In this document: piece by piece, positions 31,445 to 61,212 of the stretch | How positions within the stretch are numbered: position 1 is the stretch's first letter | How the letters are laid out: each line of letters begins with the position of its first letter | Translations under genes and position numbers: made by a program | Notes under the pieces: model-generated | Seen by the model: only the letters and a program-made list of their open reading frames with translations | What the model was told of the DNA's origin: nothing | Databases searched by the model: none | From: an uncultured Methanosarcinales archaeon | Lineage (GTDB): Archaea; Nanobdellota; Nanobdellia; Woesearchaeales; GW2011-AR9 | DNA length: 64,000 bases | Direction of reading: 5' to 3' | NCBI GenBank assembly: GCA_964344235.1 | Contig: CAYFMJ010000001.1 | Location: forward strand, 32,001 to 96,000

Positions 31445-31482
31445 CCACTCCCCACTAGACAACCGTCAGCAGGGCTTATTAA
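31445..31482 (+). promoter_or_regulatory. Conserved box + TATA promoter of LAGLIDADG-1
   Basis: CCACTCCC-CACTAGACAACC-N11-TTATTAA. Confidence 0.75.
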
Positions 31483-31503
31483 TTAATGATCTTCTAATTT
31501 CAG

Positions 31504-31540
31504 CACTCTCTGTTTTATTCTTGGTGTAAACAGAGAGGTG
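31504..31540 (+). promoter_or_regulatory. SD-sequestering hairpin upstream of LAGLIDADG-1
   Basis: CACTCTCTGTTT...AAACAGAGAGGTG, 12 bp with one bulge; the 3' arm contains GAGGTG 6 nt before ATG 31547. Confidence 0.7.
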
Positions 31541-31546
31541 ATTGAA

Positions 31547-32233
31547 ATGAACGAGAATCTGAAGAATAATCCAGAGCTGGCTCGCTTAGTGGCAGACTTA
31601 ACGAGTGATGGACACCTACAAGTAAAGGGTAATAGACATGTTGCATCGTTCTACTCAAAAGAGATATACGAAATTGAAGCAGTTCGCAGCAGATTCTTAT
31701 CGTTGTTTGGGCTTGTAGGTAATGTCCATGTCGACAAACGTCCTGCGAAAGAGGGAGGGAGAGAAGTTGTTCGATACCAAGTTTACTTCTGTTCGAAAGC
31801 TGTCTGTGTATTCCTAAAAAATATCGGTACCCCCATCGGCAACAAGACAGATAATGAGTTTTTGATTCCGGACTGGATCATGAATGGCGCTAGCCAAACC
31901 AAACAATCATACCTAAAAGGTCTATACGATGCTGAGGGAAGCATATTTTGCGGAAAGGATGGGAAATGGCAAATTACGTTCAAAATGGCTAAAAACAAAT
32001 CAATGCTTAGTGCAGGAACCAACTATTTTGAACAGATCAGAGCCTTACTTGCCGAATTCAACATTAAAACGTCTCCGGTAAACAACCATAAACTCAATGT
32101 TAGAAAAGATGGAAGTGAAAGTTTATTACTTAGAATCGCCATCGAAAAAGGTTCGTTTAAGAATTTTCAAGAGCATATTGGTTTCGATCACCAAGAAAAG
32201 AGAAAAAAATTAATTGCTGCTCTTAAAAATTAA
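31547..32233 (+). CDS. Free-standing LAGLIDADG (DOD/intein-type) endonuclease 1
   Basis: PELARLVADLTSDG and YLKGLYDAEG motifs, C-terminal F...IGF....K..KL; no Hint splicing residues. Confidence 0.88.
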   Translation: MNENLKNNPELARLVADLTSDGHLQVKGNRHVASFYSKEIYEIEAVRSRFLSLFGLVGNVHVDKRPAKEGGREVVRYQVYFCSKAVCVFLKNIGTPIGNKTDNEFLIPDWIMNGASQTKQSYLKGLYDAEGSIFCGKDGKWQITFKMAKNKSMLSAGTNYFEQIRALLAEFNIKTSPVNNHKLNVRKDGSESLLLRIAIEKGSFKNFQEHIGFDHQEKRKKLIAALKN

Positions 32234-32237
32234 AGAA

Positions 32238-32930
32238 CTACGAATCACTGACAGAATAGCTGACTTCTTGGATGCCGCCGCCGTACGCTTGGAAGAGGAC
32301 TTCTTTGACTGTAAGGTTGAAACCTTGTACGTAATAATTATCACCGTCTTGCAACCACTCGCTGAGCAGGCCGTTGATTCTTATACGCGCGCCTTTTGAT
32401 TCTATGAGAGCAAGGGAAACGTTGTATTCTTTATCGTTGAGAGTGTGGGGAATTTCATCGCCAAGCGTGAGGGTCCAGGTTTCTTCGGCTGGTTCTGATT
32501 CCTCTTCTTCTGGTTCTACTTCCGCAGGGTCAGTGTAATTCTCTGGTTTTGGTAAGCATTCAGCATTTTCGCAACCGAACTCACACGTTTTTGTTTTGAT
32601 CCAGTCACAACTCTCCAGTTGGTAACCCATTTTTTTATCACTTTTACATTTGAATCCGGAGGTACAAACCTCTGCAGGAGGAGGTGGAGCACAAGCGTCA
32701 TCAGCACAGCCGTGTTCACAGGTGGTTAAGTTCGACCAATCACAATCTTCATCCTGATATGCAATTTTCTTCTCGTCAACACATTTCATGCCAGCTGTGC
32801 AAGCAGTTGTTGGTGTATCTGTTGTAGAGGCAGTGGTTGTGTTAGCGCCTGGTTGTTCAGTAAGGTCTGTTGAGGTACACCCTACAAGAAGAAGTACAGA
32901 GCACAGAATAATGATTAACAGCCACCTCAT
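32238..32930 (-). CDS. Lipoprotein-like surface protein with two 6-Cys repeats
   Basis: MRWLLIIILCSVLLLVGC lipobox, Thr-rich linker, repeat C..G.KC......YQ...CDW.....CE.GC....C twice. Confidence 0.75.
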   Translation of the reverse strand: MRWLLIIILCSVLLLVGCTSTDLTEQPGANTTTASTTDTPTTACTAGMKCVDEKKIAYQDEDCDWSNLTTCEHGCADDACAPPPPAEVCTSGFKCKSDKKMGYQLESCDWIKTKTCEFGCENAECLPKPENYTDPAEVEPEEEESEPAEETWTLTLGDEIPHTLNDKEYNVSLALIESKGARIRINGLLSEWLQDGDNYYVQGFNLTVKEVLFQAYGGGIQEVSYSVSDS

Positions 32931-32985
32931 TGTGTTGAAAATTAATTGATTCATGTATATAAAAGTATTCTTGCGACAAAAACAA

Positions 32986-33738
32986 TTAACGATAAATTTT
33001 AGGAGTGTGTTTTACTGTTGCGAGGTTTCTATTCCGTAATGCTTCTTCATATTTTAATTTTTTATTCCTATTGTTGAAGCCAATAACTTCCATATATTTC
33101 TTAACCCTTTTGTATCCGTTAATATAAATGCGGTGTGTTGTATAAGTTATGTCTCTCTTCCTATAATGCTGGGCTTCTTTTCTAAAATAATTATCTATGC
33201 CCAGTTCTTGAAATATTTTTGAACATTCTTCTGTTAGAATCTGCGATTTAAATCCACCTTGAACTATTGGGTATGCATTTGGTTTATGCTTTATTGTCAA
33301 ACAGAAATCAGCATCGGCTAAACCACGAAGAAACGCGGCTTTAATTTCCACATTACTCTCCAATATGCACTTTGGCACTGATATATTTCTTTTATTGTTT
33401 GGTATGCCAATGTTTCTTTTAAAGAATAAGCATATTGCTTTAGATTGTCTTCTTAGTTCTATTGAATTTTTCTCTTTCTTAATATCTTTGTGTAAACGTA
33501 CTTGAAATATGTCGTGCATTAATTTTCGGGCAAAGTCCATATGTTCTTCGTCCTTTATATTACCAGAGATGTTAATATTATAACAGCTTCTTCTTTTGTT
33601 GTGGTAAATACCAATATGCCCATCGCCAACAATAATTCCAATTAATTCTGCCAATTCTGGCGTAAGATGAGAAGGAAGGCAAATTCCTGCACTTTTATCT
33701 CCATTGCTTAATTCTATACTAGATAAATCAAATTTCAT
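32986..33738 (-). CDS. Free-standing LAGLIDADG endonuclease 2
   Basis: PELAELIGIIVGDG and FLRGLADADF motifs, YMEVIGF; start refined to ATG 33738 (SD AAGGTGA). Confidence 0.88.
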   Translation of the reverse strand: MKFDLSSIELSNGDKSAGICLPSHLTPELAELIGIIVGDGHIGIYHNKRRSCYNINISGNIKDEEHMDFARKLMHDIFQVRLHKDIKKEKNSIELRRQSKAICLFFKRNIGIPNNKRNISVPKCILESNVEIKAAFLRGLADADFCLTIKHKPNAYPIVQGGFKSQILTEECSKIFQELGIDNYFRKEAQHYRKRDITYTTHRIYINGYKRVKKYMEVIGFNNRNKKLKYEEALRNRNLATVKHTPKIYR

Positions 33739-33744
33739 TTTTAT

Positions 33745-33780
33745 CACCTTTGTTTTACGCGAGATCAAAAACAAAGCGTG
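33745..33780 (-). promoter_or_regulatory. SD-sequestering hairpin upstream of LAGLIDADG-2
   Basis: Minus-strand RNA CAC-G-CUUUGUUUU...AAAACAAAG-GUG, 12 bp with one bulge; SD in the 3' arm. Confidence 0.7.
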
Positions 33781-33793
33781 GAGAAATGCAATT

Positions 33794-33831
33794 TATTTAA
33801 TACCTGCCAGTGGTTGTCTAGTGGGGAGTGG
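33794..33831 (-). promoter_or_regulatory. Conserved box + TATA promoter of LAGLIDADG-2
   Basis: CCACTCCC-CACTAGACAACC-N11-TTAAATA on the minus strand; first 20 nt identical to 31445-31464. Confidence 0.75.
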
Positions 33832-33915
33832 CTAGTTTTTTGTTTATTATTGCCGGAAATTATATAAAGGGACTTCTGCGAGAAATCTTTAAGGGTCAGT
33901 GGCCAAGTGGCTAAG

Positions 33916-33943
33916 ACTAGTCTAGATTCTAGACTAGTAGTAA
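33916..33943 (+). other. tRNA-Cys intron 1 (28 nt, position 23/24)
   Basis: BHB: helix GCTA/TAGT, bulges AG|A and AA|G, 9-bp stem CTAGTCTAG-ATT-CTAGACTAG. Confidence 0.88.
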
Positions 33944-33973
33944 GCGGCCCCCTGCAGAGGGGCAGATCGAGGG

Positions 33974-34001
33974 AAGTACTTAGATTCTAAGTGCTCTCGA
34001 A
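33974..34001 (+). other. tRNA-Cys intron 2 (28 nt, position 53/54)
   Basis: BHB: helix CGAG/CTCG, bulges GG|A and AA|T, 9-bp stem AGTACTTAG-ATT-CTAAGTGCT. Confidence 0.88.
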
Positions 34002-34073
34002 TTCGAGTCCCTCCTGGCCCTCCATTTTCTAAATGTATTTAAACTGAAACCATTTGAAGTGTATTAAGAGAAA

Positions 34074-34484
34074 ATGAACAACAAAATTAAACTTGCCGGA
34101 TGTGTAATTCTAAAAGAAGATGCTATCCTTCTGCAACATAGAACAAAAAGAAATTGGTACGAATTACCAGGAGGAAAACTGGATGAAAACGAATCGCCAG
34201 AACAAACAGCAGTGAGAGAGCTTAAGGAAGAATTATGTTGTGATGTCGAGATTATTGAACAACTGGGAGTAAAAGACTTCGTGGAAGATGGTTTTACAAT
34301 GACTTATGTTTGGTTTCTTGCAAGAATTAAGGAAAATCAAGAGGTAAAAATTGGTGAACCAACTAAAATAAGCCATATTCATTATATCCCAATTAAAGAT
34401 CTCGAGTCTCATAACCTTTCACCCAACATGGAACGTCTATTAGAGGAGATTAAGCAAAAGAGAGTAAAATTATTTAAACCATAA
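34074..34484 (+). CDS. NUDIX hydrolase
   Basis: Nudix box GGKLDENESPEQTAVRELKEELC. Confidence 0.9.
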   Translation: MNNKIKLAGCVILKEDAILLQHRTKRNWYELPGGKLDENESPEQTAVRELKEELCCDVEIIEQLGVKDFVEDGFTMTYVWFLARIKENQEVKIGEPTKISHIHYIPIKDLESHNLSPNMERLLEEIKQKRVKLFKP

Positions 34485-34499
34485 TTATAATCTCAGTAC

Positions 34500-35588
34500 A
34501 TGAATAAAAAAGCAATCTCCTCTTTAGAGCTAGCGGCACTTGTACAAGAATTGCAGTTTATTGTGAAAGGAAAGGTTTCGCAGATTTATCATCAGGAGAA
34601 GAAGGAGTTACTGCTACAATTACATGCACCAGGGCAGGGTAAACAATTGTTAAAGATAATTCCAGGGAAATTGTTGTGTTTAACGGACAGGAAAAAAGCA
34701 GGAAGTTTACGGCCAACAGGGTTTTGTATGCAGTTGCGGAAATATATCAATAATGCATTTATCAAAAGTATTCAGCAAAAAGATTCAGAACGAATTGTTG
34801 TATTTGAGTTGGAGAAAAAGGAGAAGTATTATTTGATTGTTGAATTGTTTTCCAAGGGGAATATTGTATTAGTTGATGGCAACTATAAGATTATTGCAAC
34901 GTTAACATGGCAGAAGTGGAAAGATAGGACTGTAAAGCCGGGAGAAGAATATCTCTTTCCAGAATCGCGAGTTAATTGGAAAACAATTAGTGAACCTATG
35001 TTTAAATCGTTGGTGGAAAAGAGTGAGAAGAAGAATCTGGCTACAGCTCTGGCAACAGAATTGGGCTTAGGTGGAGTGTATGCGGAGGATTTATGTTTAC
35101 GAGTGGGTGTTGATAAGAATATTGTGCCCACGGATGTGACGGCAGCACAGGCTGGGTTGTTGTTTCAGGGACTGCAAGAGATGTTAGTGTTGTTAGAAAA
35201 CCCAAAGGGGTGGATTTACGAGGAACAGGTAACGCCGTTTCCTCTTGCTGAAGAAAAAGATGAAAGGAGAACAAAGACGTATAATGAGGCGATCAATACA
35301 CTCAATCCGTTTCAAAAGAAGTCGCCGTATGAGCAAAAGATCGCTGCAATTGAGAAGACTATTGCGACACAGCAGGAAGCGATTGAGAGTTTGAAACTGA
35401 AGATTGAAGAGAATGGTAGGAAAGGAGAAAGGGTTTATGAGGAGTATGCTAACTTGCAGAAGTTGTTAGATATCGTGAAAGAGTTGCGGAAAACAGCGAC
35501 GTGGGAAGAGGTTAAAGGAGAGTTAACAAAAGAGAAGAAAATCAGTTCTGTTAATCTGAAGAAGAAAACTGTAATGATTGAGTTATGA
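34500..35588 (+). CDS. NFACT/Rqc2 (FbpA) family protein, N-terminal part only
   Basis: F.MQLRKYI.NA.I.SI.Q...ERIV.F, LIVELFSKGNIVLVD, LG...AE..C.R.G, coiled coil; ends at 362 aa. Confidence 0.8.
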   Translation: MNKKAISSLELAALVQELQFIVKGKVSQIYHQEKKELLLQLHAPGQGKQLLKIIPGKLLCLTDRKKAGSLRPTGFCMQLRKYINNAFIKSIQQKDSERIVVFELEKKEKYYLIVELFSKGNIVLVDGNYKIIATLTWQKWKDRTVKPGEEYLFPESRVNWKTISEPMFKSLVEKSEKKNLATALATELGLGGVYAEDLCLRVGVDKNIVPTDVTAAQAGLLFQGLQEMLVLLENPKGWIYEEQVTPFPLAEEKDERRTKTYNEAINTLNPFQKKSPYEQKIAAIEKTIATQQEAIESLKLKIEENGRKGERVYEEYANLQKLLDIVKELRKTATWEEVKGELTKEKKISSVNLKKKTVMIEL

Positions 35589-36284
35589 TTTTTGCATGTA
35601 ATATGCTCTTTTTTCTGAAGAGAATTTTTCTATCGCGTACCGTAGCATTGTGCGGGGCATTGTTTTATAGTGTTGTTGGAGGAACTGTTCTTCAAGAGGT
35701 TGATCTCTCTTTCCAATCTCACGTAACATCCAGCCAACTGCTTTATGGATGAGATCGTGTTTATCGTTGACTAAGATTTCGGCAATTTCTAGAGAATCTG
35801 TAAATTGGTTTTTGTGAATAAACCAGAATGTTGCTAAAATGGAGATACGGCGGTCCCAGAGGTTATCTGATTGAGCGAGGGCGTGGAGAAGTGACTTATC
35901 TTTGTCTAACAAATATCTGCCAATAACTTTATGTGCAGTTACATCAATTAAATCCCAGTTATTAGCGTATTGTTTGTGGTTAATGTAGAAATCAAATATT
36001 TCTTTTTGTTCTTCTGGTGTCGCTTTTTCAAATTTATATGTAAGAATGATGAATGAGGTAAGCCTTACTTCGTGGTATTTGCTTTTGATTGATTTCGAAA
36101 GCTCTGCAAGAGAAATGTTCACATATTTCTTAGCAATCTTTCGTTGTTCAGGGACTGTGATTCCGAGAAATACATCACCTTCACCATATTGCCCAGGGCC
36201 TGTTTTGAAGAATCGTTGTAGTACTTTTGCTTTCTCTGGGTTTTTGCGTTGCTGCAGTTCTGTGAGGAGTTGAGAGAGCATCAT
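35583..36284 (-). CDS. DNA alkylation repair protein (AlkD-like HEAT-repeat)
   Basis: FFKTGPGQYGEGDVFLGITVP..RKIAK, NNWDLID, NLWDRR, IHKAVGWMLRE.GK, MPRTMLRYAIEK. Confidence 0.9.
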   Translation of the reverse strand: MMLSQLLTELQQRKNPEKAKVLQRFFKTGPGQYGEGDVFLGITVPEQRKIAKKYVNISLAELSKSIKSKYHEVRLTSFIILTYKFEKATPEEQKEIFDFYINHKQYANNWDLIDVTAHKVIGRYLLDKDKSLLHALAQSDNLWDRRISILATFWFIHKNQFTDSLEIAEILVNDKHDLIHKAVGWMLREIGKRDQPLEEQFLQQHYKTMPRTMLRYAIEKFSSEKRAYYMQKS

Positions 36285-37042: not shown

Positions 37043-37097
37043 TCTTTTCACGTGGCAAATGAGGTATTTTAATGTTTCGATGATTGAGACCACAACC

Positions 37098-37127
37098 CAC
37101 TCGACAACTGCGAGTAGAGAATATAAA
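37098..37127 (+). promoter_or_regulatory. Conserved box + TATA promoter of the DUF4186/RNase-H-like operon
   Basis: CACTCGACAACT-N11-ATATAAA; ATG 37150 follows 22 nt after the TATA (leaderless). Confidence 0.65.
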
Positions 37128-37149
37128 TGAGTAATTCTGTGGGGAATCT

Positions 37150-37500
37150 ATGCAAGAGGTGTTAGCAAAATTGGAGCGGTCGAGGTTTCGCAGAAAGTTT
37201 CGTTTGTCTGAGAACGATATTGAGTATATTCAGCGAAAAACGGTTGAAGTGATGTATGATCATGCAGAGGGTTTTATCCGAGAGCGGTTACGGGAGTACC
37301 CTAGAAATGATGGAAAACAAACGCCGTGGAAAGGACATCCTGTGTTTATTGCGCAACATGCCACAGCCACTTGTTGCAGAGGATGCATGGCGAAGTGGCA
37401 TAACATTCCAAAGAATGTTGTGATGGATGAAGAACAAATTGCGTATGTAAGGGATATTATTATGACCTGGATGTGTGGGCAAATAGTAGAACATGATTGA
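37150..37500 (+). CDS. DUF4186 family protein
   Basis: L.RSRFR.KF.L, NDGKQTP.KGHPVFIAQHATATCCRGC..KWH.I. Confidence 0.9.
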   Translation: MQEVLAKLERSRFRRKFRLSENDIEYIQRKTVEVMYDHAEGFIRERLREYPRNDGKQTPWKGHPVFIAQHATATCCRGCMAKWHNIPKNVVMDEEQIAYVRDIIMTWMCGQIVEHD

Positions 37501-38221
37501 GCAATCATTTGTATTTTTAGAGAGAATTGGGTTCAGGAAAGAGAGAGGTATTTGGCAACAGGGAATTAGGACATGGCAGGATTTCTTACTGTGTGAGAAC
37601 ATCCGAGGGGTTTCTGGGAAGAGAAAAGGCCATTATAATCGGAAGATACAGGAAGCGCAGCAGGCGTTGTGGCGGGGAGATTATTCTTATTTTATTGGAA
37701 AGTTGCCTCAAAAAGAGATGTGGCGGTTGTATCCGTTTGTTAAAGAAGAGTGTTGTTTTGTAGATATTGAGATTGATGGAAATGGAAGAATCGTGGTTGT
37801 GGGTGTTTCAAATTATTTTCAAACGAATTTCTTTGTGAGAGGGGTTAATTTGCAGAAAGAAATGGTTGAGAGGGAGCTGGGGAAGTATAAGGCAATAATT
37901 ACATTTAATGGCGGAGCGTTTGATGTGCCAAAACTGTGGAAGGAGTTAGGCGTTGACGTTGGGATGATACATATTGACTTAAAGCCGCTGTGTGTGAATA
38001 TGGAAATGAAAGGTGGTTTGAAAGAGGTAGAGAGACAGTTGCAGTTACGGAGACCATTTCATTTATATGGGAATCCTATTGATCTATGGAAAGCGTTTCA
38101 CGCTTCTGGTGATAGAGAATATTTGGAGTTGCTTCTCGATTATAATAGAGAGGATTGTGAAAATTTGAAGAACATTATGGAATTTGTCTATAAGGGGATG
38201 GTAAAAAATTATATAAACTGA
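37493..38221 (+). CDS. RNase H-like (YprB-type DEDD) exonuclease-domain protein
   Basis: FVDIE, ITFNG..FDVP, HIDL, GGLK.VER.L, L..YNREDC.NL. Confidence 0.82.
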   Translation: MIEQSFVFLERIGFRKERGIWQQGIRTWQDFLLCENIRGVSGKRKGHYNRKIQEAQQALWRGDYSYFIGKLPQKEMWRLYPFVKEECCFVDIEIDGNGRIVVVGVSNYFQTNFFVRGVNLQKEMVERELGKYKAIITFNGGAFDVPKLWKELGVDVGMIHIDLKPLCVNMEMKGGLKEVERQLQLRRPFHLYGNPIDLWKAFHASGDREYLELLLDYNREDCENLKNIMEFVYKGMVKNYIN

Positions 38222-40418: not shown

Positions 40419-40679
40419 TTATGCTTTCTTTTTTTGTTTTTGCAGAAATTGAGAACCTTGTGCAGTGATAGATACAACATGGGCCGCCCGGCCGTTTGAA
40501 GGATGTTTCTTTATGGTCTTAATGGTTACTTGGCCAAAATCCTGCAGTTCTTGACAATTGGCTTTAATTGTTCTATAACCCGTATTAACTTTACGTTCAA
40601 GAATGGCGTACGTCGCGGGTTGCTCCTGTAAGTGATGGAGGATATCCTTTTTTATGTTGTATGAAGAACGCTTGGACAT
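40419..40679 (-). CDS. Winged helix-turn-helix protein
   Basis: IL..L...P.TY..LERKVNTGY.TI...C.EL...G.V pattern. Confidence 0.7.
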   Translation of the reverse strand: MSKRSSYNIKKDILHHLQEQPATYAILERKVNTGYRTIKANCQELQDFGQVTIKTIKKHPSNGRAAHVVSITAQGSQFLQKQKKKA

Positions 40680-41688: not shown

Positions 41689-42075
41689 ATGGGAGTATGC
41701 ACAAATTGTGTTGATAAGTATGGAGACTGGTTCTATTTCGTGTTTCGTTTATTAATCGGTCTACTGTTTTTCATGCATGGTTATGGAAAATTGTTTGGTG
41801 GAGAAGCTACTGGATTAATTTGGTGGGCAGGATTAATTGAATTGCTCGTAGGATTGGGAGTGTTCTTTGGGTTCTTTACCAGGTTAGCAGCGTTTGGCGG
41901 TGCGATTGTAATGCTAGTTGGGTATTTTATGATGCACTTTCCAATGGGCTGGAATCCGTTGCTTAATGAAGGACAAGCGGCAGTGTTGTTCTTTGCAGCG
42001 TTCTTAGTATTGATGCAGAGAGGAGCAGGTAAGTGGGCATTAGAAAGAGCTCTATTGAAGAAAGAAGTGTTCTAA
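41689..42075 (+). CDS. DoxX family membrane protein
   Basis: FRLLIGLLFFMHGY.KL, ELLVGL....G..TRLAA, GAGKWAL. Confidence 0.88.
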   Translation: MGVCTNCVDKYGDWFYFVFRLLIGLLFFMHGYGKLFGGEATGLIWWAGLIELLVGLGVFFGFFTRLAAFGGAIVMLVGYFMMHFPMGWNPLLNEGQAAVLFFAAFLVLMQRGAGKWALERALLKKEVF

Positions 42076-44261
42076 CTTCTTTCCTTTTTTTTATATTTTT
42101 TTTCCATTATTGAATTTATTTTTTCCGCAGTTTTTTGGCCGATGCCTTCTACCTCTGTAAGGTCTTCTGCAGTGAGGAGTGCTTTTATTGAGCCATACTG
42201 TTCCAGCAATTTCCGAGCTGTAGCAACGCCAATTGTTGGAAGAGAAGAAACGATAAATTCTAGCTGCTCATTGGTTGTTCTTGGTTTGTTAACGTGATAT
42301 GAAAAATCGCGTGATTTGTCTTGTTCACGTTTGGCCATAACGGCTAGCAGCGCTGCTGTGTCTCTTGCGTTTTTTGTGTATAAAACAGGGACGTGGAAGT
42401 CTAATGTTATAGATGAAAGCATGCCACGGATAGCGTTAGCGTGAACTTTTCGTACAGAATAAATATCTTCCTCACCTTCAATAATAACAACGGACTTTTC
42501 GAAATTATTTTTTAGGTGGCGGACTTGTTCGAGTAATCTTCCGTCAATTATGGAGGAAACAAAGTCGGGAACTTTCTTTAGTTCGACGCCTACTTTTCCA
42601 GAGACAACATAATCGGCAGATTCAAGTTGTGCCGTTTTGACGGAAACTCCGAGGTCAATTAATTCTTTGACAATGCGATTATTTTTTTCACGATGATCTG
42701 CTACTACTGCAACAACTTGCTCTTTTGGAATAAATGTTTGTAGAGAGGTGTTCTTTGTGGAGGGGGTGAGAGAGAATTCTTTTTTGAGTTTCTCCAAATT
42801 ACGGTACATTCGCTTTTCTTTATGATGAGAACTCCACCTATATCCTTCGTCGCGGGTTTTTTCTGTGACGAGGATGGTAACAGCACCCTCTTCTAATCGT
42901 CCTGTGCGGCCTCTCCTCTGAATAGCACGAATTGCTGAGGGAACTGGTTCGTAGAACATTACTTTATCTACTTTAGGGATGTCAAGGCCTTCCTCCGCTA
43001 CACTAGTCGCAACGAGAACATTAAATTTGTTGTTACGGAATTGATCTAAGATTTCTTTTTGTTGTTTTTGTGAAAACCCTATGCCATTTTTTTTTGTTTG
43101 ACCGACAAAGATGTGTGAGGGAATGGGGTGGAGTGTTTTAATGATTTGCTCAGCTGAGTCACGGAATTGTGTGAAGATAATGATTTTTGCATTTGGATCT
43201 GCAGTGATACGTTCCGAGGTGAGTTCTTTAAGTTTGAGAAGTTTAGGGTGTTGAATGTTTTTTTCTATAAGTTCCTCTGTCAGGTAGGCAGCTGCTTTGA
43301 AATTTTCGTCAAGTACAAGGTTTCTGACCGCTTTTACTTTCGAGGTCGTCGCTTCCTGCTTTAATTTGTTGCAATAGGAATGGAGAGGGTTGATGCCCTG
43401 TGTTTCCAATAATTCTATAGCGTGATCAACTTTCAGTGCTTCCGCAACTAATGAAACACTTTTGAGAATCTCAAAATCTTTGATGCCAGAAGATATCTTT
43501 TTCATCAATTCTCCCTGTAACCCAAGCATCTGCGTTTTTGTTAGATCAGAAGAGGAACAATAGCCATAGCCCATTGCCTGTAGAAGTTTTGATTTTCTAC
43601 AATCTTGCAGATATTTTTGAATTTTTTTGAACTCGTCGGGGAGAGGAACTTTTACCCATTGTTTCTTGATTGTTTGGACGTACGGTTTTACATCTGGGTC
43701 TTGTTCCGTTCGTACCTCAACTTTCTCGATATGAAGATTCGTGCAAACTTCTCTAATTTTTTCCATATCACTGCCAGGAGATGCGGTGAGAGCGAGGATG
43801 CGTGCGTACTTTGAACGCTTTTCGTATTGGTCAGCAATCCAGACATAAGAGTATTCGCCCGTTGCATGATGCGCTTCGTCAACTATTAGCAAAGAGGTTT
43901 CCGTTAAGTTGATGCGTTTATTGATTATGTCGTTTTCCAGCCCTTGGGGTGTTGAAACAATTATTTGGGAGGATTTCCAGAGGTCTGCACGTTTTTCTGG
44001 TTTTACAGAGCCGGTGAATAGGGAAATGTTTTCGTTCTTGAGATGGGTTTTGAGTGTCTCTACGTGTTGTTCACATAGCGGTTTTGTCGGGGCAAGCATC
44101 AGAATTTTTGATTGGGGGTATTGGTGTAGTCTTTGTGCGATGAGAAGGAAGGCAATGGCAGTTTTCCCTAAGCCAGTAGGAAGGACAACAAGTGTGTTTT
44201 TACTGACTGCCGTACCGAGGATTGTTTGTTGATAGAGCCTCGGGGTGAAGTTTTGAATCAT
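42072..44261 (-). CDS. hef: Hef/FANCM-like DEAH helicase fused to ERCC4 nuclease and HhH
   Basis: PRLYQ, LPTGLGKT, DEAH, LTASPG, ATSVAEEGLDIP, QRRGRTGR, then D.RE, ADY, ELKK and HhH GIGQKTA; start refined to 44261. Confidence 0.95.
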   Translation of the reverse strand: MIQNFTPRLYQQTILGTAVSKNTLVVLPTGLGKTAIAFLLIAQRLHQYPQSKILMLAPTKPLCEQHVETLKTHLKNENISLFTGSVKPEKRADLWKSSQIIVSTPQGLENDIINKRINLTETSLLIVDEAHHATGEYSYVWIADQYEKRSKYARILALTASPGSDMEKIREVCTNLHIEKVEVRTEQDPDVKPYVQTIKKQWVKVPLPDEFKKIQKYLQDCRKSKLLQAMGYGYCSSSDLTKTQMLGLQGELMKKISSGIKDFEILKSVSLVAEALKVDHAIELLETQGINPLHSYCNKLKQEATTSKVKAVRNLVLDENFKAAAYLTEELIEKNIQHPKLLKLKELTSERITADPNAKIIIFTQFRDSAEQIIKTLHPIPSHIFVGQTKKNGIGFSQKQQKEILDQFRNNKFNVLVATSVAEEGLDIPKVDKVMFYEPVPSAIRAIQRRGRTGRLEEGAVTILVTEKTRDEGYRWSSHHKEKRMYRNLEKLKKEFSLTPSTKNTSLQTFIPKEQVVAVVADHREKNNRIVKELIDLGVSVKTAQLESADYVVSGKVGVELKKVPDFVSSIIDGRLLEQVRHLKNNFEKSVVIIEGEEDIYSVRKVHANAIRGMLSSITLDFHVPVLYTKNARDTAALLAVMAKREQDKSRDFSYHVNKPRTTNEQLEFIVSSLPTIGVATARKLLEQYGSIKALLTAEDLTEVEGIGQKTAEKINSIMEKKYKKKERS

Positions 44262-44282
44262 AGAAGTTCGAGGAGGAGTGGT

Positions 44283-44312
44283 TATATAAGGGTTATGTGT
44301 GGTTGTCGAGTG
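44283..44312 (-). promoter_or_regulatory. Conserved box + TATA promoter of hef
   Basis: CACTCGACAACC-N11-TTATATA (preceded by CCACTCCC); ATG begins 22 positions after the last TATA base. Confidence 0.75.
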
Positions 44313-44355
44313 GGGGAGTGGGATGTTTTTTATAGAAGTGGTGTTTTGAGAATAC

Positions 44356-44874
44356 ATGAAAACGATTATCTTAGTATGTGGGGTGCCAGGCGTTGGGAAA
44401 ACTTTTGTGAGTCGGAAGCTTGTTGGTGCTGTTGAGAATTGTTATTTATTGGATTCAGATGAATTTTGGACAATCCATGGTAGCAAGTACAATACAAATG
44501 ATGAGGAAAGTACGAGGGAAGCGTTCCGGATTAGTTATATCACACTGAAAACAAATGTTACGAAAGAATTGCTAGAGAAGTATGACGTTGTTATTGTTGA
44601 TGGTATTTTCACACGAAAAAGCGATAGGAAAATATTTTATGATTTTGCAGAAAGAGAAGGTTTTGCTGTGAAAATTATTCGGGTTGTGTGTTCCCCAGAG
44701 GTTGTTGAAGAAAGAATTAGAAAGCATACAGATCACGTTTGCGATCCAGAGGACAGGATGAAAGGGTTCCATCGCGCATCGAAGAAGTGGGAGGAGATTG
44801 AGCGAGAACACGTCGTTATTGATTCTAGTAAAGAAATTGATATCGTGAAGGTGGTAGAGCAATTAGGATTGTAA
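44356..44874 (+). CDS. P-loop kinase (AAA_33 family)
   Basis: GVPGVGKT, LDSD, VIVDG.F, V.C..EVVEERI.. Confidence 0.8.
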   Translation: MKTIILVCGVPGVGKTFVSRKLVGAVENCYLLDSDEFWTIHGSKYNTNDEESTREAFRISYITLKTNVTKELLEKYDVVIVDGIFTRKSDRKIFYDFAEREGFAVKIIRVVCSPEVVEERIRKHTDHVCDPEDRMKGFHRASKKWEEIEREHVVIDSSKEIDIVKVVEQLGL

Positions 44875-52408: not shown

Positions 52409-52484
52409 GTTTTACTGTAAAATTAAGCTTTTTGAGCTTGCAATTTATCGTCGATAAAAACGTGTTTTTTAGAGATTTTTTGTG

Positions 52485-52510
52485 TTTATAAAGCTTGTGG
52501 TTGTGGAGTG
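52485..52510 (-). promoter_or_regulatory. Variant box + TATA promoter of gyrA
   Basis: CACTCCACAACC-ACAAGCT-TTATAAA (N7 spacing, one mismatch to the consensus). Confidence 0.45.
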
Positions 52511-55982: not shown

Positions 55983-56480
55983 ATGGGATGGTTTAGCAAG
56001 AAGAAGAAAATACCGAAGGTGCCCTTGCCGGCAGGCCATCCAGTTGATGAGAATGCATTACGATTTCCTTCTATGCCACATTCGGAGAGAGTTATTGAGC
56101 CAGATCATGTGAAGCAAGCTGTTGGTGTTGGAAATGATAAGTCATTGCCACCTCTACCAGAGTATCCTAAGATGTCTCCGCCAGCAGCTCCTCGACGAAA
56201 GGTAGCAAAGCGACAACCTACGGCTCCGGCGATGGCGCCACCCATACCAAGAGTAGCGGGCCACCCATTATATGCAAAAGTGGATGTGTACCAGAGAGTA
56301 TTGGGGGAGTTAGATAGTTTACGGACAGATATCTCTCACTTGTCAACTGCAAATAACCATTTAGCAAAATCAGAGTTTAATGAGGAAAAGAATTTTGAAA
56401 AATTGAAACGAAACGTACGCAACATGCACGATAGATTATTGCTTGTTGACAAAGTATTATTTAAAACGCAAGGTGAATAA
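55983..56480 (+). CDS. Hypothetical protein: MGWFSKK start, Pro-rich linker, C-terminal helical hairpin
   Basis: PLYAKVDVYQRVLGELD..R..I...L...E..E...L. Confidence 0.7.
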   Translation: MGWFSKKKKIPKVPLPAGHPVDENALRFPSMPHSERVIEPDHVKQAVGVGNDKSLPPLPEYPKMSPPAAPRRKVAKRQPTAPAMAPPIPRVAGHPLYAKVDVYQRVLGELDSLRTDISHLSTANNHLAKSEFNEEKNFEKLKRNVRNMHDRLLLVDKVLFKTQGE

Positions 56481-56481
56481 A

Positions 56482-56709
56482 ATGGAACGAATGCCAGTTT
56501 TTGTAAAAATTGATGAATATAACGACGTCCTACATTTGTTAGGGTTAATTCGAAGGAAACTTGATGATGCTAAAGAGACTTTGGCTAAAATCCACGACTT
56601 AAAGAATGAAGAAGATCATCAACTAGAGACGTGGCATAACACGTTGGAAGAAGTCGAGAAAAAAGTTGATTTTATTAATCACTCATTGAGTGAACCAGAA
56701 AAGTTCTAA
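56482..56709 (+). CDS. Small helical-hairpin protein, paralog of the C-terminus of 55983-56480
   Basis: PVFVKIDEYNDVL.LL..IR.KL; SD AGGTGA upstream. Confidence 0.75.
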   Translation: MERMPVFVKIDEYNDVLHLLGLIRRKLDDAKETLAKIHDLKNEEDHQLETWHNTLEEVEKKVDFINHSLSEPEKF

Positions 56710-56710
56710 G

Positions 56711-57220
56711 ATGGCTGCTAAGAAAAAGAAAAGTAGTACGAAAAAGAAGAGTATACCTAGAAAGAGAACTACTGCTAAGAAAAAAACAGTCAAAGCAGTA
56801 AAAGAGCCAGAATATATGGTGCAAGTATCTGATCCGAAAATGATTCGGAAGGATTTGCTCGAGTCATTACGAGAAGTTATTATCTTTATGCAGGGGTATG
56901 AAAAGTTTCGAAGTATGCAACAAGAGAAGGTTGCCTTGTTTACTGCGTTGAAAACAGAGGTTAAAGAGTTACATGCATTAAATGAGAAGTTGCGGAAGAA
57001 ACTGCCGAAAGGGAAGTTACAACCAGTTACAGCGGAGCAACAACAGAAAAAGAATGTTGAGGAAGCTGTACAGGAGATGCCAGAGGAAGTTCCTGAAGAA
57101 CATCATGAAGAGCCGGTAGCGGCGCCACCTGCTCCTGAACCAGCAGCACCGCCGAGTGGTTTAGCTGCGTTAGAGTCGCAATTGCAGGATATTGAGCAGC
57201 AGTTGCAGAATATTCGGTAA
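56711..57220 (+). CDS. Coiled-coil protein with Lys-rich N-terminus
   Basis: EYMVQVSDP..IRKDLLES.RE.I coiled coil, Pro/Glu linker, L..LESQL..IE..L tail. Confidence 0.7.
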   Translation: MAAKKKKSSTKKKSIPRKRTTAKKKTVKAVKEPEYMVQVSDPKMIRKDLLESLREVIIFMQGYEKFRSMQQEKVALFTALKTEVKELHALNEKLRKKLPKGKLQPVTAEQQQKKNVEEAVQEMPEEVPEEHHEEPVAAPPAPEPAAPPSGLAALESQLQDIEQQLQNIR

Positions 57221-57271
57221 ATTATATTCTTTATTTACGATTTTATTATATTGTAAAAGTGTTTTGATAGT

Positions 57272-57739
57272 ATGCACGATGCAACACTCTGTATTCCCCT
57301 CGAAGAGGAGCACATTCGTTTAGCAATGAAAAAGCGAGGTTTTGGCGCAGGCCGGTATAATGGATATGGAGGAAAACCAGAGGCCGGGGAATCTATTGAA
57401 GATGCTGCAGTGAGAGAGTTCTATGAAGAGTCTGGTGTAAGAGTTAAGAAAGAGGATTTAGTAAAGGTAGGAGAGGTAGAATTTTACTTTCCCCATAAAC
57501 CAAACTGGGATCAAAAAGTTCATATCTATACCGTTCGTCAATGGGAGGGGGATTTTGTAGAGACGGAAGAGATGAGGCCAGGAAGATTTCATCATTCGGA
57601 AATTCCATATTCCCAAATGTGGCCGGACGATGAGTTTTGGTTACCACATGTTCTTGCTGGGAAGTATGTGATGGGGAGTATTGTATTTGGAGAAGGAGAT
57701 ACGATTCTTGAGAATCGGTTGGAGATAAGGGAGAGTTAA
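57272..57739 (+). CDS. NUDIX hydrolase, 8-oxo-dGTPase (MTH1-like)
   Basis: LAMKKRGFGAG.YNG.GGK.E.GESIEDAAVRE..EESG, ETEEM.P, IPY..MW.DD..WLP. Confidence 0.88.
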   Translation: MHDATLCIPLEEEHIRLAMKKRGFGAGRYNGYGGKPEAGESIEDAAVREFYEESGVRVKKEDLVKVGEVEFYFPHKPNWDQKVHIYTVRQWEGDFVETEEMRPGRFHHSEIPYSQMWPDDEFWLPHVLAGKYVMGSIVFGEGDTILENRLEIRES

Positions 57740-58590
57740 GCACTATACGCATCCATTACTTGTAATACTACTTGAGGATTTGTTGTTGGAAGAGAGTGTG
57801 GTGCGCCTGGAACAACATCGATATCAAGTTCACCCACTACTAATCCCCTAACGATTGGTTCTGCTTTTGTAGGCACAACCATTGCATCTTTGCTACCATA
57901 AATCATGTGGGTTGGAACGTAAAAACCACCTAATTGCTCAGAAACATCAAAGCCAATAGCGACCCTACCCATAACATTATTTGCTCTGATTCTATGCCAC
58001 GGTTGATCTACTATTGTTTTCAGAACTGCCAATTCTGATGCGCCTTCCAATTGTGACTGGTCTGGATATGATCTTTTTGTTCCTCTTAGCAAATGTCCAA
58101 GACCGGTTATTGCAAACCCTGGCCATTCAAGCACATAACGACCAACTTTGTCAAAAAAGTGATACAGAGCAACATTTGGTGCGGTGTCTTTAAAGTTAGG
58201 TGCAGTGCAGATACCCGTTAGTTTTGAAGCATTTTTGGTACGAGAAATATAATCAACAGCCGGCATAAAACCGAAACTTGTTGCAACAAATTCTGGCCTC
58301 TCTATACCCTTACGAGCTAAAATCATTTCAAGGTCTTGAGAGTGTCTTTCTAACTCATAAAATTCTGGTTTCGTGGGAGCATCAGAATAACCAAAGCCAC
58401 GTGGGTCAAACGTTAGAGTTGGGTGACCCCTTTCATTCAGGCCCGCTTCTAGTCGTTCAAGGGAACTATGGTTCATGGAAGATCCAGGACACAATACTAC
58501 CATTTTCTTGTTCATGCCACTGCCAGAATTTATCCAATAAAATACTTCTACTCCGTCCTCAGCAACAATTTTTTGATTAGGTTGTTTCAT
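57736..58590 (-). CDS. Alpha/beta-fold hydrolase
   Basis: D.RGFGYSD, ATSFG nucleophile elbow, PT..IYG..D..V, APHSL; start refined to 58590. Confidence 0.85.
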   Translation of the reverse strand: MKQPNQKIVAEDGVEVFYWINSGSGMNKKMVVLCPGSSMNHSSLERLEAGLNERGHPTLTFDPRGFGYSDAPTKPEFYELERHSQDLEMILARKGIERPEFVATSFGFMPAVDYISRTKNASKLTGICTAPNFKDTAPNVALYHFFDKVGRYVLEWPGFAITGLGHLLRGTKRSYPDQSQLEGASELAVLKTIVDQPWHRIRANNVMGRVAIGFDVSEQLGGFYVPTHMIYGSKDAMVVPTKAEPIVRGLVVGELDIDVVPGAPHSLPTTNPQVVLQVMDAYSA

Positions 58591-58716
58591 AGAGTGATTT
58601 AGGAGGTGGTTTTTATAAGATTTGTGTTTGTAATCATTGTGGAGTGGTTTCAATTTTATTTTAGTTACTTTTATAAAATAATCATAGTTGAAATGTTCTA
58701 TGCGGACGTGCCGGAG

Positions 58717-58759
58717 AACTCACTTCGTTCGTGCTCCAACAAACGAAGTTTGTCCGGAG
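58717..58759 (+). other. tRNA-Leu intron 1 (43 nt, 15/16)
   Basis: Central helix CCGG/CCGG, bulges AG|A and AG|T, intron stem ACTTCGTT/AACGAAGT. Confidence 0.82.
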
Positions 58760-58775
58760 TGGTCAAACGGGACGG

Positions 58776-58808
58776 TTCGTTTGGCATTACGGTGCCAAGT
58801 GAGTCCAT
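58776..58808 (+). other. tRNA-Leu intron 2 (33 nt, 30/31)
   Basis: Central helix GGAC/GTCC, bulges GG|T and AT|A, 11-bp stem with TACG loop. Confidence 0.85.
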
Positions 58809-58815
58809 ACTCAAA

Positions 58816-58848
58816 TGCTAAAACCATTTCCTGATTTAGCGTAGAGCT
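58816..58848 (+). other. tRNA-Leu intron 3 (33 nt, canonical 37/38, relaxed BHB)
   Basis: CTCA/AGAG (3 of 4 pairs), GCTAAA/TTTAGC intron stem, 3' bulge CT|A. Confidence 0.72.
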
Positions 58849-58946
58849 ATCCGTTGGTTTAGTACCTACGCAGGTTCGAACCCTGCCGTCCGCACTTTAT
58901 TATTGTATTCTTTCTTCTTAATTCAACTTTTAAATTGTAATTTTAG

Positions 58947-58984
58947 CCACTGGTCACTGGACAACCACTAGCAGAGTTTATATA
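58947..58984 (+). promoter_or_regulatory. Conserved box + TATA promoter of LAGLIDADG-3
   Basis: CCACTGGT-CACTGGACAACC-N11-TTATATA. Confidence 0.75.
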
Positions 58985-59019
58985 CAAAATCACTTACGAA
59001 GTTTCACAGTACCAAGATT

Positions 59020-59775
59020 ATGAATACAAAAATAAATCCGGAGGTTGCAGAGATCCTAGGAGCCTTTATAGGAGATGGGTGGCTTGAAAGCTCATTAGGT
59101 GCGATCTACATTACGGGTGATAAAACTGAGGATAAAGAGTATTATGATGCATTTTTAGGCCCTTTGTTTAGTGAACACTTTTCTCCCGTCACACCACAGC
59201 AATTCCCGTACTGGAATGTATATGGAATTGGTTCTTCTAAGAAAATAGCAATTGAGAAGTGCTTGAGTCTCGGTTTTCAACCAGGAAGTAAAGCACTCGT
59301 TGCAAAAATGCCAGACTTTATTATGAAAACACAAAATGTTGAGGTTAAGAAAGCTATTCTAAGGGGTATCTTTGACGCTGATGGATGTATATGGTTTGAT
59401 AGATCAAGAGCCAAGACATCTAACGAATGGAAGAGAAAATATCATTATATTCCAATTATAGAAATTTCCTCTTGTTCACAAAATTTATTACAACAAATGA
59501 AAGAAATCCTAACTACTTTTGGAATAGAATCACTTATTATACTAAAGAGTAAAGCGGGAAGAAAATTCAATAGGAATCGACATGATTCTTTCTCTTTAAA
59601 AATAAGGAAAATTGACCATGTTAAAAAATGGTTCAGTATTATTGGTTCTAGTAATTCAAGACACCAAACGAGGTATGCTGTTTGGAAAAAATTCGGCTTT
59701 CTTCCGCCAAGGACAAATATTAACCAAAGAAAGCAAATTTTAGCGGGGAAATTAGATCCTAAGAGTTTCTATTAA
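59020..59775 (+). CDS. Free-standing LAGLIDADG endonuclease 3
   Basis: PEVAEILGAFIGDG and ILRGIFDADG motifs, WF..IG.SN. Confidence 0.88.
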   Translation: MNTKINPEVAEILGAFIGDGWLESSLGAIYITGDKTEDKEYYDAFLGPLFSEHFSPVTPQQFPYWNVYGIGSSKKIAIEKCLSLGFQPGSKALVAKMPDFIMKTQNVEVKKAILRGIFDADGCIWFDRSRAKTSNEWKRKYHYIPIIEISSCSQNLLQQMKEILTTFGIESLIILKSKAGRKFNRNRHDSFSLKIRKIDHVKKWFSIIGSSNSRHQTRYAVWKKFGFLPPRTNINQRKQILAGKLDPKSFY

Positions 59776-59816
59776 GTTTCACATAGCTTTTTAAACACCC
59801 AAAGTATTCTTTGTGG

Positions 59817-61151
59817 ATGCCAATTGAAGTATGCAGCATCGGTGGATTCTCGAAAACAGAAGGGAATTCCGTTGCGATTAAAGTTGATGATGAAGTTGTT
59901 ATTCTTGATATGGGTTTAGGGATGGAGTCGTACATCAAGTATCAGGAAGACCGCGAAGATGTCAAGAGCGAGAAGGATTACAAAGATCTTGTAAAAGTTG
60001 GTGCGGTTCCTAATTATAGTTTCATTGCTGATTGGAAAAGCATGGTTAAGGCGATCGTGCCAAGCCATGGTCACCTCGACCACGTAGGGGCGATTCCGTT
60101 TGGTGCGCATTTATTCCCGACTGCCCCCGTGGTGTCAACACCGTATAGTATTGAGGTGCTGAAAAGTATTTTATGGGATGAGCACATTAAGTTACGGAAT
60201 GAATTAGTAACGATTCAATTAAATGGTTTGTATAAAGTGTCTGACAAGATTACATTAGAGTTCATTAATGTGACACATTCTATTCCACACACGGCAATAA
60301 TCTGCGTGCATACCCCATATGGCAAGGTGTTATATGCTAATGATTACAAGTTTGATAGACAACCAGTGATTGGAAAGAAGCCAAACTTTGCACGGTTGAA
60401 AGAGTTAGGAGATGAAGGAGTTGCGTTACTTATTGTGAACTGTTTATATGCGCACGCGCAAAAGAAAACCCCCTCTGAATCAGTTGCACGACAAATGTTG
60501 AAAGATGTGGTGTTGGGAGTAGAGACGGAAGGAAAAGCGATGATTGTGACAACGTTTAGTAGTCATTTAGCAAGGCTAAAAAGTATCATCGAAATGGGGA
60601 GGAAACTAGATCGAAAAATAGTGTTTATTGGTAGGTCGCTGATGAAGTATGTGAAAGCGGCTGAAAGAATTAATTTGGTTTCGTTTACCAATCAAGTAAA
60701 GATGATGAGGCATCGGGATAAAATTGAGCAAACATTAAGGCAAGTACAAAAGAATAAAGGGAAATATCTTATTGTCTGTACGGGCCACCAAGGGGAACCG
60801 CGAGCGGTGTTATCACGAATAGCTCGAGGGGAGCTGGACTTCAAGTTGAGTCATGGAGATGTTATAATATTTAGTTGTCAAGTTATTCCCGTTGAAGTCA
60901 GTATCAAAAATCGTGAAAGATTGGAAAAGAGTTTACGCAATTATAATGTAAGAATCTTCAGAGATGTCCACGTTTCCGGCCATGGGGCACTGGAAGATCA
61001 TCGTGATTTATTGGAATTAGTAAAGCCAAAGGAAATTATGCCGATTCACGCCGAGAACGAGAAAGCGAAGATGCTTGCTGATTTCGCAGCGAAGTTGGGG
61101 TATAAGAAAACACATATCATGCAAGATGGTGGGAGAATAGTTGTCAAGTGA
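59817..61151 (+). CDS. rnj: Ribonuclease J (metallo-beta-lactamase, beta-CASP)
   Basis: LDMG, SHGHLDHVGA, THSIP, DYKFD, TTFSSHLARL, TGHQGEP.A.L.RIA, HVSGHG, PIHAE; start ATG 59817. Confidence 0.95.
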   Translation: MPIEVCSIGGFSKTEGNSVAIKVDDEVVILDMGLGMESYIKYQEDREDVKSEKDYKDLVKVGAVPNYSFIADWKSMVKAIVPSHGHLDHVGAIPFGAHLFPTAPVVSTPYSIEVLKSILWDEHIKLRNELVTIQLNGLYKVSDKITLEFINVTHSIPHTAIICVHTPYGKVLYANDYKFDRQPVIGKKPNFARLKELGDEGVALLIVNCLYAHAQKKTPSESVARQMLKDVVLGVETEGKAMIVTTFSSHLARLKSIIEMGRKLDRKIVFIGRSLMKYVKAAERINLVSFTNQVKMMRHRDKIEQTLRQVQKNKGKYLIVCTGHQGEPRAVLSRIARGELDFKLSHGDVIIFSCQVIPVEVSIKNRERLEKSLRNYNVRIFRDVHVSGHGALEDHRDLLELVKPKEIMPIHAENEKAKMLADFAAKLGYKKTHIMQDGGRIVVK

Positions 61152-61186
61152 TTTATCACCTTTCGGTGCCGATTTCTCTATGAAAC

Positions 61187-61212
61187 TACTGGACAACAAC
61201 AAATCTTATAAA
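61187..61212 (+). promoter_or_regulatory. Conserved box + TATA promoter of PCNA
   Basis: TACTGGACAACA-ACAAATC-TTATAAA (N7 spacing). Confidence 0.55.

Follow-up and report, generated by a model that had tools for sequence, protein, structure and literature searches.

Introduction

In the Sulfolobales, members of a domain without LexA, damage-related genes share a promoter element, the DNA damage-responsive element (DDRE), which is linked to the regulator Orc1-2 (PMC6061795; PMC5817253). Here we describe a likewise archaeal promoter element common to damage-related genes, found in an uncultivated archaeon of the Woesearchaeales. The analysis began with a 64-kb stretch of DNA (hereafter the window; G000:C1:32001-96000) from a genome of 1.19 Mb in 37 contigs that is 96% complete (G000, hereafter the source genome). 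An earlier note on the window had described a promoter box, YACT-N-GACAAC, at three LAGLIDADG nuclease genes, hef, a DUF4186 gene, PCNA and gyrA, and had read it as the mark of an SOS-like DNA-damage and replication regulon. We found that this box is the core, or front part, of a rigid composite promoter of about 40 bp (hereafter the module). Taking all of the evidence together, we consider the module best explained, on balance, as the upstream activating element of an undescribed SOS-like regulon of repair and recombination genes.

The module and the Sulfolobales element differ in several respects. The DDRE is an ANTTTC hexamer unrelated to the 30-nt repeat module, whose consensus contains no ANTTTC, and it lies 23–55 bp upstream of the start codon without a rigid box-to-TATA geometry (PMC6061795). 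Whereas the Sulfolobales regulon comprises DNA transfer, pili, tfb3 and cell division and excludes homing endonucleases, the module regulon includes radA, hef, lhr and homing endonuclease genes. The Sulfolobales system needs a dedicated Orc1-2 paralogue, whereas the source genome has a single Orc1/Cdc6. The co-activator in the Sulfolobales is a truncated TFB paralogue, TFB3; the source genome does encode a 232-residue TFB-like protein, which was found in 1 of 40 relatives. To our knowledge, the Sulfolobales are the only archaea for which a DNA-damage regulon and its cis element have been defined, and our full-text searches of the literature returned no description of this motif in DPANN archaea or Woesearchaeota.

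The likeness to bacterial SOS lies in the genes brought under one cis element, namely a recombinase, excision repair (uvrA and uvrB, in relatives of the source genome), a polymerase, helicases, small peptides and selfish genes, and in the recombinase gene being the most conserved member. The module differs in that it consists of direct repeats upstream of an archaeal TATA box and TFB recognition element (BRE), whereas the LexA operator is a palindrome over -35/-10; no S24 peptidase was found in the source genome, and induction of the module is deduced from gene content. Two further bacterial systems, PafBC with RecA-NDp in Actinobacteria and DdrO/IrrE with RDRM in Deinococcus, are lineage-specific and place their cis element within or beside the core promoter of recA and repair genes. 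They differ from the present case in that we found no WYL or M78 gene in the source genome, and in that the transcription machinery here is archaeal.

In promoter architecture, the module resembles archaeal activator sites of the GvpE/Ptr2 type. The GvpE site of haloarchaeal gas-vesicle promoters likewise places two short direct repeats next to the BRE, on its upstream side, and no change in their spacing is tolerated (PMC2241852); it offers the best-studied precedent for activation from such a site. The two differ in sequence and biology, and the GvpE site serves one gene cluster as against 25 modules per genome. The regulators differ as well, GvpE being a leucine-zipper protein.

Results

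The box is part of a rigid composite promoter

The seven box sites of the earlier note all lie where, and on the strand on which, it had placed them. At five of these (31453, 37098 and 58955 on the plus strand; 33823 and 44312 on the minus strand; hereafter the N11 sites) the box is followed after exactly 11 nt by an A/T heptamer, and at PCNA (61187, plus) and gyrA (52510, minus) it is followed after 7 nt by TTATAAA. Four sites carry an extra CCACT upstream, as claimed, and a fifth has CCACA. The pattern YACTNSACAAC occurs eight times in the window against 0.61 expected, and none of 100 shuffles reached eight. On the minus strand, one further match (61140-61150) and a near-match (60874-60883) had gone unlisted; they fall within the RNase J gene, are not followed by a TATA box and look like chance occurrences.

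Genome-wide, the short pattern has 29 matches, 17 of them inside modules, with about 11 expected; outside modules its frequency is about the chance rate. The sequence ACTNGACAAC occurs 28 times in the genome, and about 40 aligned bases are common to 17 of these occurrences. The resulting consensus is CCAC(T/A)nCCCACTnGACAA(C/G)(C/T)rCnrGTAGa, followed by three bases and TATAAA. Within it, two or three repeat units of the CCAC(T) type can be made out, namely CCACTnC, CCACTnG-ACAAC and CCACnGG-TAG. Together these units would extend from about -63 to -32 relative to the start site, adjoin the TATA box and take the place of the BRE usual in this genome.

A 48-nt matrix built from the 17 aligned genome sites gave 25 sites at or above 19.8 bits in the 1.19 Mb, and none scoring between 14 and 19.8. 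All 25 point at a gene and have their TATA box at one fixed distance. The five N11 sites score 36–54 bits, and the bases of highest information lie 13–32 nt upstream of the TATA box. As a control, we used a matrix of the 20 upstream bases alone, without spacer or TATA box. This matrix gave 22 matches at or above 19 bits, with a TATA-like hexamer at the same offset in 22 of 22, and 34 matches above 12 bits against 8–12 in shuffled genomes. Because the same offset emerges from a matrix that excludes the TATA box, the spacing belongs to the element and not to the search method, which bears out the fixed geometry reported for the N11 sites. A single box common to all seven promoters did not emerge: the matrix unites the five N11 sites and gives PCNA and gyrA negative scores (Table 1).

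For comparison of the core promoters, we aligned 226 promoters of the source genome on their TATA boxes as a generic set. At the BRE position, these promoters show cCrAAAnnT, where the module promoters carry GGTAGAGT, in agreement with the earlier observation that the N11 promoters lack a BRE-like element. The module promoters thus have a non-consensus BRE position together with a good or near-consensus TATA box. If the TATA box is assumed to lie near -27, the repeats span about -63 to -44, and the BRE position falls within the conserved spacer.

Four LAGLIDADG leaders and the radA leader are predicted to form hairpins in which the ribosome-binding site is paired. The stem sequence changes from gene to gene while the pairing is kept, which suggests a second, translational gate.

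Genes downstream of the module

Among the genes behind the 25 modules, Pfam identified radA (Rad51/RadA), hef, a Lhr helicase gene and a RadC-like gene. The radA operon consists of a small protein gene followed by radA, with the module in front. A zinc-ribbon HRDC gene that carries the module adjoins polB on the upstream side of the latter, and polB has an ordinary promoter of its own as well. The other downstream genes encode the DUF4186 protein with its RNase_H_2 exonuclease, two Xer-like tyrosine recombinases of the phage-integrase family, a conserved micro-protein, a lysine/arginine-rich protein, two unknown proteins and about a dozen LAGLIDADG proteins. The genome-wide scan places the radA operon, hef, lhr, radC and HRDC-polB in one set, as a repair regulon would have it. 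None of the 25 modules stands before a translation, transport or membrane gene, in keeping with the absence of the box from such promoters that had been seen in the window, and none precedes any further replication gene or orc1. The source genome has no copy of uvrA or uvrB.

That homing-type nuclease genes share the box holds throughout the source genome. All 10 free-standing LAGLIDADG_3 matches have the module, and the two remaining matches lie in inteins (C4:26136 and C1:172229). The LAGLIDADG proteins of the genome are only 22–32% identical pairwise, so that their promoters are far better conserved than the genes themselves.

The module is conserved in related genomes

Counts across relatives are observations that are not independent of one another, and those below should be read as such. 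Of 41 related genomes, 35 contain the sequence CCACTNGACAAS, as do 22 of the 24 other genera of the family; its matches number about 110, whereas the reversed control gave about 25. By the matrix built from the source genome, the radA operon is preceded by the module in 18 of 29 relatives, and the hef promoter keeps the box in 11–13 of 27. Six relatives supplied 40 box sites for inspection, almost all of which are whole modules with the TATA spacing unchanged. The genes behind these 40 sites include, by Pfam, those for Lhr, UvrA, UvrB, PolB, a Dna2/Cas4-like nuclease and Xer-like recombinases, along with mobile-type genes (LAGLIDADG, Bro-N, KilA-N, ORF6N and Dcm). Full-length matches between the LAGLIDADG proteins of the source genome and those of the fetched loci are at most 25–39% identical, and one 49-residue piece reaches 53%.

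In distant families, the upstream part of the module takes the form of a tandem repeat, CACTGGA twice and then CAT. The spacer is specific to each family and uniform within a genome. At orthologous promoters, the module is kept at radA, hef, lhr and the micro-protein gene across genera and families. Among 301 genomes of the class, the box-plus-TATA combination occurs in 36 of the approximately 52 genomes of the order, usually several times in each, and in 15 of the 249 others, mostly once; its reversed control was found in almost none of the same 301. The module is essentially confined to one order.

PCNA and gyrA have promoters of their own

At PCNA, the box-like 11-mer is 4 nt nearer the TATA box than the module box is, and the sequences that flank the box in the module are missing. 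In 27 of 28 relatives examined, PCNA promoters are of the type ACTACTTyAyAACAAyAAATCTTATAAA, without the box, and the version containing the box core is limited to the source genome and G004, where it is likewise 4 nt nearer the TATA box. The family element ACTACTTyAyAACAAyAAAT, directly before TTATAAA (window 61180-61212; L050-L078), resembles the box at 7 of 11 positions and is yet distinct from it.

At gyrA, CACTCCACAAC lies upstream of a conserved ACCACAAGCTTTATAAA and breaks the invariant G of GACAA. This CACTCCACAAC box is conserved in none of the 25 relatives with readable upstream sequence, where the gyrA promoters instead conserve ACCACAAGCTTTATAAA and a leader palindrome, TTTATCGaCGATAAA. 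In the window, the palindrome (TTTATCGACGATAAA, 52445-52457, minus strand) lies about 30 nt downstream of the TATA box, and most of the 25 relatives keep it at the same place; its role may be that of an operator specific to gyrase or of an element that senses supercoiling. The matches to hef and gyrA come in pieces in several relatives, inside open frames of about 1120–1360 residues (hef for example in G018 and G024; gyrA for example in G004, G014, G020, G024, G029, G032 and G034), which suggests inteins in these two genes.

PCNA and gyrA, which had been counted as members, thus fail the module matrix, have a different spacing and possess orthologous promoters with other conserved elements. 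With both excluded, the replication half of the first reading has to be dropped. What stands of the proposed SOS-like damage and replication regulon is its coherent, conserved set of repair and recombination genes.

Small proteins encoded behind the module

Of 30 loci, at least 24 have kept the small protein gene before radA, which encodes 85 residues. Within the order, 46 of 52 genomes have the protein, as do 50 of 249 others, and in other families at least 11 additional genomes have the box directly before its gene. Its structural model (predicted local distance difference test score, pLDDT, 87) has four strands plus a helix. A Foldseek search with this fold returned nothing at E <= 0.001 (the best match was Pur-alpha), VIA-align reached at best Z 5.4, to YbaB-like proteins, and searches for related sequences gave no match in the PDB and only unnamed bacterial and phage clusters in the Atlas. 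A kinship with PC4 is at most a conjecture, suggested by the sequence pattern of PC4.

A supposed upstream open reading frame (ORF) before Sua5 proved to be a conserved protein of 39–42 residues, MVDLSxxTIKxLFExQVRxLTxRT...KEDSFDYQLSGGWL. This micro-protein recurs in 22 of the family's 24 genera as well as in some further families, and in about 19 of 27 loci its promoter has the box 64–75 nt upstream. It forms part of a micro-ORF pair, in which the 39–42 residues are overlapped by a second frame of 32–40 residues, followed by a hairpin and then Sua5/YrdC (L001:365-582 = G000:C8:1979-2196; L187-L213). Sua5 may be a mere neighbour of the box-driven micro-protein. A Pfam search with the micro-protein gave no match, and its AlphaFold model is a single helix (residues 6–34, pLDDT 73). 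We had considered it as a ribbon-helix-helix repressor acting on the tandem repeats, and rejected this idea since the model is a single helix and not strand-helix-helix.

Search for a regulator

The source genome encodes one TBP, one full TFB and one Orc1/Cdc6. A search for the LexA-type S24 peptidase (PF00717) gave no match in it and matched 10 control genomes; no WYL or IrrE-like M78 gene was found either, which upholds the view of a lineage without a known LexA equivalent. On conservation, neither of the regulators put forward with that view did well. The winged helix-turn-helix (wHTH) protein at 40419-40679, a short query, found no more than a single weak match (E 2e-6) among 40 relatives. 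As for a LAGLIDADG protein, which as a domesticated regulator of the WhiA kind should accompany the site, the helix-turn-helix (HTH)-LAGLIDADG protein that we tested (L017:369-1310) has an orthologue in 0 of 40 relatives and the copies in the source genome are as divergent as given above, other HTH-fused copies not having been searched for genome-wide.

Two further candidates were rejected in the same way. A CARF-wHTH protein (L115:1456-2154) occurs in 1 of 300 genomes of the class, and the TFB-like protein mentioned in the Introduction (L111:1165-1860) in 1 of 40 relatives. TrmB-family paralogues, which were considered as well, number about 10 in the source genome, with one upstream of a box-driven xer-like gene and one convergent to radA; the latter neighbourhood is common to 3 of 30 loci, and no clear orthologue was found in five box-rich genomes. 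The TFB-like protein consists of a zinc ribbon and one cyclin repeat, and its gene (L111:1165-1863; G000:C1:404865-405563, minus strand) adjoins that of a truncated tyrosine recombinase and probably belongs to an integrated element. A fused thyX-thymidylate kinase gene directly follows the gene that joins CARF (HFX_2341/Csa3-like) to a winged helix (L115:109-2157, G000:C10).

One Cdc6_C gene scores above the family cut-off and lies beside the origin; a second, weak match is the CARF-wHTH protein. The 689-bp intergenic region beside orc1/cdc6 (G000:C1:130514-131202) contains four origin recognition boxes and an A/T-rich centre and is the probable replication origin. Its boxes, for example TTTCCACAGGAAAT followed by a G-run, share a CCA-N-TGG dyad with the module units CCACTGGA and CCACAGG.

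Features of the window

The modules of the window, the genes behind them and the two promoters judged to lie outside the set are collected in Table 1.

Table 1. Promoter modules, associated genes and compared promoters, in window coordinates.
Feature	Position	Strand	Score or evidence
Promoter module of LAGLIDADG gene 1 (CCACT, CCCACTAGACAAC, spacer, TTATTAA)	31440..31487	+	48.7 bits
5'-leader hairpin of LAGLIDADG gene 1, pairs Shine-Dalgarno (SD) sequence (GAGAGGTGAT)	31502..31541	+	minimum free energy -13.7 kcal/mol, z -2.5
LAGLIDADG_3 gene 1, probable ATG 31547	31538..32233	+	Pfam PF14528, E 1.6e-10
LAGLIDADG_3 gene 2, probable ATG 33738	32986..33774	-	Pfam PF14528, E 9.7e-9
SD-pairing leader hairpin of LAGLIDADG gene 2	about 33745-33783	-	-11.0 kcal/mol, z -2.3
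Promoter module of LAGLIDADG gene 2	33789..33836	-	44.7 bits
Promoter module of DUF4186/RNase-H-like operon	37085..37132	+	54.3 bits
DUF4186 gene	37150-37500	+	PF13811, E 4e-44
RNase_H_2-superfamily (PolB-exonuclease-like) gene, overlaps DUF4186 gene	37493-38221	+	PF13482, E 3.6e-22
hef (helicase + ERCC4 nuclease + HhH), near-leaderless, start 44261	42072..44261	-	Pfam ERCC4, DEAD, Helicase_C, HHH_5
Promoter module of hef	44278..44325	-	36.4 bits
Divergent AAA_33 (zeta-toxin-like) kinase gene beside hef	44356-44874	+	Pfam
gyrA promoter, judged not a member	52484..52510	-	-6.3 bits
Promoter module of LAGLIDADG gene 3	58942..58989	+	47.9 bits
LAGLIDADG_3 gene 3	59020..59775	+	PF14528, E 2.2e-9
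PCNA promoter, judged not a core member	61187..61212	+	-18.8 bits

A TATA-like run on the opposite strand abuts the hef module (44313-44356) and would make the transcript of the AAA_33 kinase gene leaderless. This run probably serves the divergent kinase gene, and a factor on the hef box could affect both genes.

The module of LAGLIDADG gene 1 starts 14 nt past the 3' end of a tRNA-like sequence. Elsewhere in the source genome, copies of a tRNA-like sequence (D-arm, anticodon arm, long variable arm and T-arm) lie behind two box sites. At one of these (L010; G000:C3, 5' end of lhr) the lhr reading frame passes through the tRNA-like copy, and at the other (L008; G000:C2:about 7900-8170) the copy looks complete, with an apparent insertion in the T-loop. 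ARAGORN and Rfam called no tRNA gene in the tRNA-like sequence behind these two sites. They may have arisen by duplication of an att site, or may represent an unusual tRNA gene.

Discussion

We propose that one sequence-specific factor docks on the module and co-controls a DNA-repair and recombination regulon. It would bind directly upstream of a weak BRE and recruit TFB and TBP upon damage or when recombination is needed, and the leader hairpins of several members might add a second gate by pairing the ribosome-binding site. The conserved core of such a regulon would be the radA operon, the 40-residue micro-protein, hef, lhr and the Xer-like recombinases; polB, uvrA, uvrB, radC and an exonuclease would be lineage-specific members, and essentially all free-standing homing-type nuclease genes, with other selfish genes, would have joined it. 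The parts of this proposal are not equally firm. That a protein binds the module we hold with high confidence. That the module activates rather than represses is somewhat favoured, given that repeats at an unchangeable distance upstream of the BRE reproduce the architecture of the GvpE site. Judged from gene content alone, the odds lean slightly towards DNA damage as the signal.

Several observations weigh against the proposal. A conserved block that reaches into the BRE position equally suits a repressor that blocks TFB, and both the sign of regulation and inducibility are deduced from gene content and architecture. Among sequencing runs, none of RNA was listed as holding the sequence, and a single DNA run holds a small share of its words. 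The spacer is near-uniform inside genomes yet differs between families, four regulator candidates failed the conservation test, and membership outside the core varies, as for the Dna2/Cas4-like gene, which has the box in relative G021 and not in the source genome. Finally, a 69-bp block comprising box, TATA box, leader and SD sequence is 99% identical at two loci (L001:293-361 and L002:293-361) whose flanks and downstream ORFs are unrelated. This block is a promoter cassette copied recently, and part of the similarity among modules therefore reflects copying or gene conversion and not independent selection.

Of the other explanations, the one that survives best, and that we regard as a serious if less probable contender, is that the module is the operator of a LexA-like repressor, which sits on box and BRE, keeps TFB and TBP off and is removed after damage. 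The conserved block runs without a break from the repeats through the BRE position to the TATA box, the usual place of archaeal repressors; the near-consensus TATA boxes might make these promoters strong once freed; and bacterial SOS regulons typically hold selfish genes under a common repressor. Against this, the non-consensus BRE suggests promoters with low basal activity that depend on assistance, the most informative bases lie farther upstream than simple occlusion needs, and no LexA, IrrE/DdrO-type or WYL protein was found in the source genome.

Alternatively, the regulon could be tied to a stage of the cell cycle or of recombination (post-replicative recombination, chromosome resolution or uptake of host DNA) and not to damage. 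Even without damage, replication and chromosome resolution require Xer-like recombinases, radA, hef, lhr and polB; the source genome lacks uvrA and uvrB; and the Sulfolobales have cell-cycle regulons marked by short promoter motifs (PMC13199686). We consider this explanation unlikely: the replication genes tested, PCNA and gyrA, do not have the module, none of the 25 sites precedes another replication gene, and in relatives the module does precede uvrA and uvrB, which are dedicated to the excision of damage.

The identity of the reader raises a further possibility, namely that the single Orc1/Cdc6 reads the box and that the box derives from an origin recognition box, in parallel to Orc1-2 of the Sulfolobales, though with no paralogue reserved for the task. 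Between the origin boxes of the source genome and the units CCACTGGA and CCACAGG, 7–8 of 11–12 bases agree, and the proven damage regulator of the Sulfolobales is an Orc1/Cdc6 protein (PMC6061795). The resemblance is short, however, and may be due to chance (by a rough estimate, at a probability of about one in five given the possible alignments). Moreover, the only Orc1/Cdc6 present would have to serve, no module precedes orc1, and the module is specific to one order whereas Orc1/Cdc6 and origin boxes are universal. We therefore hold such a role for Orc1/Cdc6 to be improbable. Similarly long odds attach to the boldest combination of these ideas, in which an order of DPANN archaea would run an inducible SOS-like response through a new regulator, maybe the single Orc1/Cdc6, reading a 30-bp module derived from an origin box, with homing nucleases wired in so that they cut only when the recombination machinery is on.

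It is very improbable that the module is a portable, generic strong promoter cassette spread by selfish elements or gene conversion, with no dedicated regulator or signal: the near-identical 69-bp block at unrelated loci, the uniform spacers within genomes and the mobile-type genes (LAGLIDADG, recombinase or other) behind over half of the sites would fit, but the module is kept before the single-copy genes radA, hef and lhr in many genera and several families, is absent before translation, transport and membrane genes, and gives alike promoters to old, divergent LAGLIDADG coding regions, which argues for selection on the promoter.

An activating module for repair and recombination genes, as proposed above, would matter in three ways. 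DPANN archaea are uncultivated and almost nothing is known of their gene regulation, for which the module provides a precise, testable handle. In annotation, the module flags short genes that gene callers miss, such as that of the micro-protein. Lastly, homing endonucleases and selfish genes are consistently tied to the recombination programme of their host, which would give a simple account of how their activity is timed.

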